Assembly (NCBI GenBank): GCA_951406725.2
Contig: OX597834.1
Location: forward strand, 40,734,001-40,798,000
DNA length: 64,000 nt
From: Octopus vulgaris
Taxonomy: Eukaryota
Direction of reading: 5' to 3'
The notes under the pieces were generated by a model that was given only the letters and a program-made list of their open reading frames with translations, was not told the DNA's origin and searched no databases. Shown here one piece after another: positions 13,315 through 14,802 of the stretch (the stretch's first letter is position 1; each line of letters starts with the position of its first letter). A program made the position numbers and the translations under genes.

Positions 13315-13625
13315 CGGGCATTTTGTCATGCGCGTGTTCAACCGGATATTTATCTCAGACTTTCAAAATCCAAGAGACATTTCGCTGCCATTCAAAACCC
13401 GTCCACCCCAAGAAAGACCCTCTTTGTTGTGAGATTTAAAGTTAAATGTTAAAGAAATCCTATTAACATATTATTCTATAACATTTACGCAGTAACACAC
13501 TTCACAACAAACTCTGACTTTTAATATTTACAGGGAATTTGTCTGATATTTGTTTTTTCTTCTCTTCTGTTATTCTTCACTCACAACTTTACTGCTTCAT
13601 TTACGGAAAAAAAGATATAGACGAG
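13315..13625 (+). promoter_or_regulatory. Paralogous ZNF-type promoter and non-coding exon 1, upstream of the Tigger transposase
   Basis: Blocks shared in order with 4115-4500: GCGC(A/G)TGTTCAACCGGAT, TACGCAGTA, CTGATATTTG, GAG|GTA donor (13625/13626), then intronic TCATT(A/C)AATCGTCT. Confidence 0.55.
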
Positions 13626-13839
13626 GTAATATTTCAAATAGTTATTTTCTTCATTCAATCGTCTATTTTCCGTTCATCAATATAATGTTTCTCTTTGTTT
13701 GATCCATCATATATTCGTAGCACCTCCGACTAGACTCATAGAACACCTTCACGTCAGCGAAGATTTTTTTAATTAAATATTAAATTAAAACGGTCAGTGC
13801 TATAATTATTTACAGTAATACTTCGCTTTACGAGTTTTA

Positions 13840-14231
13840 TCTCTCTCTATATAAAGCTGAAGTTGTCTGTGTGTGGCAGGTTTGGTAGCCTTCAACTAAC
13901 ACTATCTCCTCTGAGACCCTGCAGCTCAAGTTGACCAAAATTGAGAGTATGATAGAAGAAGGCTTGCTCTTCCTTCCGTAGAAGAAAAATTCAAATCGGA
14001 CCATGTTAACACCAAAAATTATTTACATCAAAAAGGTGCTTTTTTTTCTATGAAAATCCCTATTTTTTACGATTTTTCGACTGCTGTGTCGCCAGTTTTC
14101 GGTGTATTTCAACCAGAAAAATGTTCACTTAAAGAGAATAACAAGCTACATAATGCAAAATTTTTACTTTTCAAAAATTCTAACTCTAAAGGGTCGAAAC
14201 AAACCCGAGCAACGCCGGGCGATACTGCTAG
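13840..14231 (+). mobile_element. Non-autonomous Helitron nested in the Tigger 5' region
   Basis: 5' TC(TC)nTATATAAAG, 3' hairpin CCCGAGCAACGCCGGG then CTAG; A|T insertion with no TSD, supported by the empty site at 46561-46590. Confidence 0.85.
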
Positions 14232-14481
14232 TTCTATAATTAATATAAAAATGTTAAACAGTCATTATGTGTGTGGCAACATTGGTTCTGACACGTCTAC
14301 ACAGTTGCAGAGAGCGACGGAATAAAATGACAGGATAAAATTTCAATTTTACCAAAATTTAAATGCCTTAGTTGCACGTGCGCTTTGTTGAAAGAGATTG
14401 TAAGCTAATTCTTCGTGCTCTGTATTTTATATTGTGTACGTGTTTTTACTATTTTCGGCATTTTTAAAAAACCCACCCAAT

Positions 14482-14802
14482 ATGTCTAAACGAAAGTGTA
14501 CAACGGACACCGACGGGAACAAAAAGAAACGGAAAGCCATCACTTTAAAAACAAAGTATGAAATTGTAAAAATGCACGATGGTGGTACAACCGTGAAGAA
14601 CATTTGTGACAGGTTTTCACTTAAATCGTCAACTGTCTGCACGATTCTCAAAGAAAAACAAAAATATTTATCTCAGGTGAGAAATGCGCAGCCTTTGCAA
14701 TCGACGTGGTCTCGTAAAAGAGATGCTGGAAGCATTATTCCGGAAATGGAAAGACTTGTAAATGCATGGATAACTGACACGACGCAACGAATGCAGATAT
14801 GA
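14482..14802 (+). CDS. Tigger/CENP-B-like transposase, N-terminal HTH DNA-binding part (frameshifted from the downstream ORF)
   Basis: KKKRKAITLKTKYEIV..SSTVCTILK (CENP-B N-terminal HTH) and EMERLVNAWI (start of the second HTH); stop overlaps the next ATG (ATGA). Confidence 0.7.
   Translation: MSKRKCTTDTDGNKKKRKAITLKTKYEIVKMHDGGTTVKNICDRFSLKSSTVCTILKEKQKYLSQVRNAQPLQSTWSRKRDAGSIIPEMERLVNAWITDTTQRMQI

Follow-up and report, generated by a model that had tools for sequence, protein, structure and literature searches.

This stretch of Octopus vulgaris DNA (GCA_951406725.2, contig OX597834.1, forward-strand positions 40,734,001 to 40,798,000; 64,000 nucleotides in all, here called the window and numbered from its first letter) raises the question of how a Tigger transposase came to lie directly behind a second copy of what looks like the promoter and first exon of a zinc-finger (ZNF) gene, and what the transposase has become there. 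The explanation to which we incline, with somewhat more confidence than doubt, is that the locus is an immobilised, catalytically dead Tigger gene, transcribed without splicing from an orphaned duplicate of a ZNF promoter and kept as a putative DNA-binding protein. To judge from sequence comparison, it is probably a young, domesticated host gene. Promoter capture is likely because the duplicated unit is not dispersed in the window and because the sequence is continuous from unit to transposon in four of four sequencing runs and in a predicted mRNA of O. bimaculoides.

A duplicated unit upstream of the transposase

The features on which the comparison of the two copies depends are as follows.

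4052 to 4487, plus strand: unit copy 1, delimited by alignment; from its setting, likely the promoter, the non-coding first exon (donor after 4385) and the start of intron 1 of ZNF gene 1
7092 to 8204, plus strand: terminal exon of ZNF gene 1, with the acceptor at 7090-7091, a long 5' untranslated region (UTR), an ATG at 7434 and a C2H2 protein of 256 amino acids (aa)
13279 to 13718, plus strand: unit copy 2, delimited by alignment; an orphaned duplicate and likely the promoter of the transposase gene
13330 to 13347, plus strand: best conserved block of the unit, 17 of 18 positions identical
13623 to 13631, plus strand: former splice donor of the first exon, cut after 13625, weakened to 6/9 and read through

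The two copies were identical at 264 of 391 aligned positions (67.5%). Their local alignment score of 169.5 was reached by none of 500 dinucleotide shuffles (97.4 +/- 9.9, maximum 132.5) and by none of 500 block shuffles (maximum 130.6). All nine shared blocks named in a preliminary description of this DNA were found, once per copy and in the same order (copy 2/copy 1: 13319/4120, 13330/4126, 13415/4207, 13486/4278, 13543/4328, the donor 13625/4385, 13651/4416, 13698/4466 and 13713/4482), which bears out its claim that the unit at 4.1 kb has a duplicate at 13.3 kb. No homology above the shuffle level extended beyond 13279-13718 and 4052-4487, either upstream or downstream. Among 634 tile-strands of the window, the best non-self match of each copy was the other copy, and a profile built from both detected no third copy in the window below E 0.1. 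With two copies, counted within the 64-kb window, the unit is not a dispersed repeat there, in line with the preliminary description.

The CpG observed/expected ratio was 1.14 to 1.38 in copy 1 (90th to 96th percentile of 300-nucleotide windows) and 0.76 to 0.85 in copy 2, against a window median of 0.57. The donor of copy 1 (4385) fits what we take to be the U1 consensus at seven of nine positions and that of copy 2 (13625) at six. The best conserved block carries what we take to be NRF1-like and ETS-like sites. Copy 1 is located 2.7 kb upstream of the terminal exon of ZNF gene 1. Because of this position, the CpG enrichment and the strong donor, copy 1 is quite probably the promoter of ZNF gene 1.

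The nearest gene upstream of the transposase is ZNF gene 1, on the same strand and ending 5 kb away. The preliminary description saw no plus-strand ZNF exon before ZNF gene 2, and no ZNF remnant was indeed found between 8900 and 20300. A search for minus-strand ZNF exons in 8900-13300 was also negative. In 8300-20300, nhmmer gave no match to ZNF coding sequence, 5' UTR or 3' UTR, and tblastn gave chance matches (E 0.1 or worse), the best of which fell on the 3' flank of gene 1 itself. The intron of gene 1 had no counterpart above the shuffle level in the sequence downstream of the Tigger element (mononucleotide shuffles, 20 to 100 each). Because no ZNF coding or UTR remnant lies between gene 1 and gene 2, replacement of a ZNF exon by the transposase, as first proposed, is possible but traceless, and duplication of the promoter alone fits equally. 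The capture of a promoter is thus the part of the proposal that stands as likely, on the continuous sequence in four of four runs, and the replaced exon is the part for which no remnant was found.

Structure of the Tigger insertion

Behind copy 2, the transposon and its reading frame are arranged as follows.

13811 to 13839, plus strand: TA target dinucleotide and left terminal inverted repeat (TIR) of Tigger with subterminal repeat; the TIR starts at 13813
13840 to 14231, plus strand: non-autonomous Helitron of 392 bp, with 5' TC and a 3' hairpin plus CTAG, between A and T without duplication
14232 to 14481, plus strand: rest of the Tigger left arm (5' leader), aligning to a Tigger fragment at 46569-46766 and to the visible O. 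bimaculoides complementary DNA (cDNA)
14482 to 16112, plus strand: transposase open reading frame (ORF), with the start at 14482, a frame shift at about 14797 and the stop at 16112
16113 to 16142, plus strand: sequence that once encoded the C-terminal tail, including a PIP-box-like motif; it now lies beyond a stop that O. bimaculoides has at the same position
16248 to 16253, plus strand: AATAAA, a candidate poly(A) signal
16317 to 16577, plus strand: copy of an abundant short interspersed repeat, at the expected position of the Tigger right end

The left TIR had been placed about 190 bp downstream of the unit on the same strand, and it was located at 13813, which is 188 bp past the donor at 13625 and about 95 bp past the end of the unit homology. 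No right TIR was found in the window by a search for reverse-strand matches with six or fewer mismatches in 23 nucleotides. The Helitron lies inside the Tigger left arm, between the left end and the ORF, and its site is empty in O. bimaculoides; its ends agree with what we take to be the rules for Helitrons (5' TC, 3' hairpin plus CTRR, A-T target). In the window, the ORF is broken by an excess of two bases at 14797, without which it has 542 codons. The protein has the Pfam domains CENP-B_N (E 5.5e-06), HTH_Tnp_Tc5 (E 2.5e-08) and DDE_1 (E 3.6e-42). Its N terminus (150 profile positions) matches the CENP-B DNA-binding domain (PDB 1hlv, E 3.5e-16); no solved structure was found to match the DDE or C-terminal part.

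The only similar Tigger end in the window is a left-end fragment of a related Tigger at 46529-46766, with four mismatches in the 23-nucleotide TIR. This fragment keeps the subterminal direct repeat and is cut by a short repeat family that also follows the end at 16.3 kb. A more diverged relative of the Helitron lies at 58208-58606 and matches it at 33 of 34 bases in the 3' hairpin end.

Frame and read-through in sequencing runs

A fraction of 0.60 to 0.75 of the sequence words of 13250-16316 was present in 18 of 24 listed sequencing runs and next to none in the other six. The 18 runs come from five studies and carry two organism labels; 14 were guessed to be RNA and four are of unknown kind. 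Four of the 18 (X1, X3, X8 and X12, from four studies, with two organism labels, RNA by guess) were aligned as assembled contigs to 13190-16316. Run totals were 36 to 110 million letters, which is far below the size of an octopus genome and fits transcriptomes, although it is no proof of them.

The two extra bases at 14797 were missing in all four runs. In X3, the row at this place had a depth of 18.3 of 29.7, and the other listed record ended at 14798 with nine unaligned letters. The donor at 13625 was crossed unspliced by one contig in each run (13344-13866, 13491-13865, 13368-13856 and 13374-13772), and three of these contigs also ran through the TIR into the Helitron. Contigs 14172-14519 and 14206-14673, from X3 and X12, bridged the 3' end of the Helitron to beyond the ATG. 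The splice from 13625 into 14230-14480 that the preliminary description had looked to was not borne out: the joints listed in the runs were two, both at the end of the Helitron, and none led from the donor into that interval, among contigs that drop rare forms. A minor spliced isoform from 13625 may exist. In 14233-14481, none of the ten AG dinucleotides was preceded by a good pyrimidine tract, that is, by more than 11 of 18 pyrimidines.

The bin 13190-13294 had zero cover in all four runs, and the first contigs started at 13344, 13368, 13374 and 13491, which is at most a weak hint of the transcription start. At the 3' end, one X12 contig left the reference at 16278, one X3 contig extended past 16316, and X8 had no cover past about 16130. 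The unit was represented by one contig per run, unlike the Helitron with its many, and at each place in the ORF the listed pieces showed one or two contig versions. The transposase mRNA is likely a single exon from about 13345 to about 16280.

In addition, two direct repeats in the left end of Tigger flank a 15-base indel at 13826; run X1 and O. bimaculoides have the longer form, and the window, X3 and X8 have the shorter one. At 14232/14233, all four runs show the Helitron joined to many other flanks, marking its other insertion sites. A joint between 14233 and 16241 on opposite strands, with short sides (32 and 24 letters) in X3 and X12, is probably another such site. In X1, one contig joins the 3' end of the Helitron (14232) back by 395 to its 5' end (13838), as would a head-to-tail tandem or a circle junction of the Helitron family somewhere in the sample.

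The junction is shared with Octopus bimaculoides

The transposase was 99% identical to an O. sinensis protein over 81% of the second frame and 82% identical to an O. bimaculoides protein. These two octopus matches stood above 58%; the next matches, from outside octopus, were Tigger-like proteins at 52 to 58%. Among the shorter homologues, the best 120 of 145 included no cephalopod name and none above 72%. The orthologue is O. bimaculoides XP_014781176 (LOC106876935), of 540 aa, with the same start and stop. Its cDNA was taken from supplement file 3 of PMC10027918, and the first 350 bases were compared. Over these bases the cDNA, a predicted RefSeq mRNA, starts seven bases before the donor and follows the window at 13619-13839 and then from 14232 onward, without the Helitron (by eye); it thus reads through donor, spacer and TIR into the Tigger arm. 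About 190 bases of flank outside the transposon are common to the window and this cDNA. The two differ by 16 substitutions in about 307 aligned bases and by five indel events, among which is the 15-base segment at 13826 (by eye). Two of the substitutions fall in the 100 bases also shared with copy 1 (13619-13718, which in addition has one 3-base gap) and 14 in the other 207. The Tigger end in the leader differs by one change in 22 bases between the lineages.

Because the O. bimaculoides cDNA shares flank, TIR and Tigger arm as far as compared, the promoter duplicate and the Tigger element were, judging by sequence, joined before the O. bimaculoides lineage split off about 34 million years (My) ago. 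Both lineages also share the change of the first catalytic Asp to Ser, the loss of one residue between the second and third Asp (a spacer of 31 residues, against 32 in homologue P0004, counted by eye) and the stop before the PIP-box tail; the motif after this shared stop is QxxLxxF. The later changes in the lineage of the window are the second Asp to Asn and the Helitron insertion.

Two earlier candidates were rejected. The stop at 16110 is not a recent lesion, being shared with O. bimaculoides, and the idea of a decayed, frameshifted fossil was dropped after the open frame in the runs and the orthologous protein and cDNA had been found.

Catalytic loss and selection

The catalytic triad is Ser, Asn, Asp in the window and in O. 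sinensis, and Ser, Asp, Asp in O. bimaculoides. Among 30 homologues, Asp occupies the three columns in 28, 28 and 24, and the first column is Ser in all three octopus sequences. Residues 1-105 differed from O. bimaculoides at four of 105 positions (96% identical) and the rest at 73 of 434 (Fisher p 2.7e-4). Among the columns on which at least 80% of 30 outside homologues agree, 0 of 18 had changed in residues 1-105, 0 of 30 in residues 411-540 and 16 of 118 in the DDE core (p 0.007), and within the DDE core conserved and variable columns changed alike (16/118 vs 18/108, p 0.58). Conserved columns had also changed in the second helix-turn-helix domain (3/21) and the linker (3/10). The regions were picked after the data had been viewed, and these p values are descriptive.

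Between the lineages, the ORF has two gaps, both in frame, against the five indel events, counted by eye, in about 307 non-coding bases. No stop was seen in the ORF, against four to five expected for 73 unselected changes (P about 0.01). At least 17 variants were listed in the ORF, in a listing that favours well-supported variants; 11 of 17 were synonymous, against 21 to 28% expected (p 1e-4 to 2e-3, by transition bias). They made up 4 of 4 in the N-terminal part and 7 of 13 after it, with two in one codon. As proxies, these counts speak for selection on residues 1-105, on the helices of the C terminus and on the frame, but not for selection on the DDE core. What is likely kept by selection is the frame, together with both helix-turn-helix domains and the C-terminal helices; the catalytic core appears relaxed.

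Taken in order, the events are these. The unit was duplicated, its copies diverging to the present 67.5%, and before O. bimaculoides split off Tigger inserted at a TA, at a place that corresponds to intron 1. The right TIR and any ZNF exon, both absent from the window, may have gone by one or more deletions, or copying may have been confined to the promoter. The loss of the first Asp, of the spacer residue and of the PIP-box tail is common to the lineages, with the second Asp to Asn and the Helitron following in that of the window. Transcription would likely start at about 13345 and run through the weakened donor, the TIR and the Helitron to about 16280, with a leader of 1.1 kb, and selection would likely act on the frame, both helix-turn-helix domains and the C-terminal helices over a relaxed catalytic core. 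Finally, the protein would bind Tigger terminal repeats, that of its own leader included, and repress or occupy them without cutting. This last step we put forward tentatively, as somewhat short of an even chance; Tigger ends are the likeliest targets because of the analogy with transposase-derived factors that bind cognate TIRs and with the CENP-B-like silencers of fission yeast.

Alternative explanations

The pieces of this reconstruction do not all point the same way, and several observations weigh against a domesticated gene driven by a captured ZNF promoter. In O. sinensis, the model XP_029648908.1 is without the first 126 residues and ends differently; its start Met lies later than the frame break of the window would give, so that its defect is probably a different one, and two assemblies with a broken model could represent null alleles rather than errors. 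Among the matches listed, no orthologue was found outside these octopuses. A profile search, of the kind proposed in the preliminary description, showed the unit at none of the other ZNF genes in the window. The leader of 1138 bases has 11 upstream ATGs, five of them from the Helitron, which would lower translation. The runs are RNA by guess, their contigs give no strand, start or level, and, the Helitron being a repeat, none of them covers the locus from end to end. In passages of PMC7386202, the screening rule for domesticated genes is that no TIR or target-site duplication is left on either side, and here one TIR and the TA remain. With a neutral baseline of 5 to 7% from the leader, 60 of 434 changes are expected at 7%, so that the 17% after residue 105 would be about what neutrality predicts, whereas a rate of 0.09 per 25 My over two 34-My branches gives about 24% and would imply clear constraint there. 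The N terminus is constrained under either baseline (P 0.001 at 7%).

The frame break of the window, the incomplete model in O. sinensis, the two lost catalytic residues, the DDE core in which conserved columns change as often as others, the leader burdened with a Helitron and upstream ATGs, and the lack of an orthologue beyond three octopus names would also suit a slowly decaying transcribed pseudogene, in which the duplicate promoter fires into a dead, functionless Tigger. However, such a pseudogene would not be expected to leave all 48 conserved N- and C-terminal columns unchanged, to pass through about 34 My on two branches with no stop gained and every gap in frame, to have mostly synonymous variants among those listed or to be open in four of four runs, and we consider it fairly unlikely. 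Another view accepts a domesticated gene but holds that the unit is not the promoter of ZNF gene 1, being a low-copy regulatory or repeated element, or that the copy at 13.3 kb came first and the one at 4.1 kb drives something else. The direction of copying is not given by sequence alone, and the missing unit at the other ZNF genes agrees with this view. Against it, copy 1 is CpG-rich, its donor is strong, and 2.7 kb downstream of it is a terminal exon for which a first exon must exist further upstream, like that of gene 2 at about 24195; moreover, neither TIRs nor other repeat ends delimit the unit, which yields one contig per run against the many of the Helitron. This view appears unlikely.

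A spliced first exon, joined from 13625 to an acceptor in the Tigger arm to give a translated mRNA, would remove most of the upstream ATGs; the GT of the donor is kept in both lineages, and contigs drop rare variants. It is nevertheless very unlikely, given that no joint from 13625 is listed, that unbroken contigs cross the donor in every aligned run, that the O. bimaculoides cDNA is unspliced there within the bases compared and that 14233-14481 lacks a pyrimidine-rich acceptor. An unspliced, domesticated Tigger gene behind an orphaned ZNF promoter is accordingly the reading we retain in comparing the locus with known systems.

Comparison with known systems

As in an autonomous Tigger (pogo), CENP-B_N, HTH_Tnp_Tc5 and DDE_1 are present here, but of the two TIRs only the left one was found in the window, and the DDD triad is not intact. 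As in domesticated pogo or TIGD-type genes, the position is orthologous in separate species, with a flank shared with O. bimaculoides; the frame is intact in four of four runs and in O. bimaculoides, broken in the window assembly and incomplete in the O. sinensis model. The O. bimaculoides gene is classed as a transcription factor of potential transposon origin, under the name 'Ob_76935', in the HTH-Psq list of supplement file 3 of PMC10027918. It shares flank, start, stop and the Asp-to-Ser change with the gene described here, but is without the Helitron and keeps the second Asp. Its promoter origin, a selection test and its catalytic status are absent from the relevant passages and the table row of PMC10027918.

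According to the respective passages, primate TIGD1 (PMC2777200) has one TIR missing and one kept, shares a promoter head-to-head with a neighbour and keeps its catalytic core, and Drosophila LOC26532114 and cag (PMC13548663) are young Tigger- or Tc1/mariner-derived genes on host promoters, cag being head-to-head. All are young and driven by host promoters, as here, but there a live promoter is shared with the neighbour; the octopus gene has a separate duplicate of a promoter, in the same orientation and without a gene of its own, rather than a head-to-head one. KRABINER and KTIGD, as presented in parts of bioRxiv 10.1101/2020.05.07.082677, are host-transposase fusions with a retained DNA-binding domain, and transposase-derived fusion proteins are described as binding cognate TIRs. 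SCAN- and KRAB-Tigger proteins also occur among the homologues of the transposase (P0028, P0075 and P0094). The likeness to KRABINER and KTIGD lies in a transposase that landed in a zinc-finger gene, with use of the 5' part; unlike them, the octopus gene has no host coding exon or splice joint, and only the promoter and a non-coding exon seem to be borrowed. Its protein begins at the transposase's own Met in both lineages.

Vertebrate TIGD2-7, JRK and CENP-B, in passages of PMC7386202, retain the whole transposase with a degenerate triad, no TIR left and a low ratio of nonsynonymous to synonymous substitution rates (Ka/Ks) throughout the protein. They have the same CENP-B_N, HTH_Tnp_Tc5 and DDE_1 set, but are far older, and the DDE core here is weakly constrained. 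In the part of PMC5371812 concerned, fission yeast CENP-B proteins silence transposons, and a PIP-box is described in pogo and Tigger transposases. A full-text search, which most subscription journals lie outside, found no publication that treats this locus or describes how a duplicated ZNF promoter was captured in a cephalopod.

The surrounding ZNF cluster

Eight C2H2 zinc-finger terminal exons, distributed over both strands, lie in the window together with many short repeats, one long interspersed element (LINE) and three transposase ORFs. In the terminal exon of ZNF gene 1, the 5' UTR is homologous to six other ZNF terminal exons in the window, the acceptor context is the same as in gene 2 and no coding exon precedes it. 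No octopus orthologue of this gene was found among the best 120 of 817 matches (8000 candidates scored). An exact look-up of eight window proteins found two, both Merlin-like ORFs, and no Tigger or ZNF protein.

The likely first exon and donor of ZNF gene 2 lie at 24195-24340 (listed on the minus strand), with an ETS-like site at about 24330. Because this first exon (about 24195-24330) is unrelated to the 4.1-kb unit, the ZNF genes in the cluster use different promoters. A complete Merlin-like element at 25766-27117 has an ISXO2-like DDE ORF of 314 aa from the Met and TIRs with one to two mismatches in 20; it is flanked by the promoter region of gene 2 on one side and by a ZNF exon of the plus strand on the other, and a good acceptor lies at about 25956. 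It is possibly a second transposase under a ZNF promoter. A second Merlin-like copy, at about 32257-33240, lies within a 4.3-kb segmental duplicate (24255-28535 vs 30459-34747, 95.8%), and the O. sinensis homologue has at least four RefSeq accessions. A small inverted-repeat element at 13012-13181, just upstream of the 13.3-kb unit, recurs at 24689-24870 and near 30900, beside the promoter region of gene 2 and its duplicate.

Other recent segmental duplicates are 28577-29460 vs 34623-35512 (97%) and 29461-30460 vs 49395-50385 (96%). On the minus strand, a LINE ORF at 41121-43970, encoding a 949-aa endonuclease/reverse transcriptase, lies between ZNF pieces at 44113-45100 and 40558-41083, as if inserted within one ZNF coding exon. 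ZNF segments 40558-41047 and 59758-60247 are 90.6% identical, well above the 70 to 78% of other pairs, which suggests recent duplication or gene conversion.

Implications

The protein was already listed as transposon-derived, and the origin of its promoter was not found in print. The start of stable transposase expression is usually erased by time, and here it is still readable: the source of the promoter, the site of insertion, the losses of mobility and of catalysis and the later Helitron can be ordered against a split of about 34 My. The gene itself was hidden by a two-base difference in the assembly. The locus would be a case of gene birth within the expanded C2H2 clusters of octopus, by way of an orphaned same-strand promoter duplicate, with no splicing and no host domain. 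This route differs from the bidirectional and exon-fusion routes described, although the general phenomenon is well known.

A wider idea, which we consider doubtful, is that the tandem ZNF clusters of octopus serve as nurseries for transcription factors. Duplication would leave orphan ZNF promoters, and transposases behind them would be turned on with the ZNF programme, lose catalysis and be kept as binders of transposon ends; the present gene would then be a repressor of Tigger ends co-expressed with its ZNF sibling. If so, it would represent a KRAB-free convergence on the KRAB-ZNF/Tigger fusions of mammals, and the Merlin-like element, 10 kb farther along the window, could show this route at an earlier stage.

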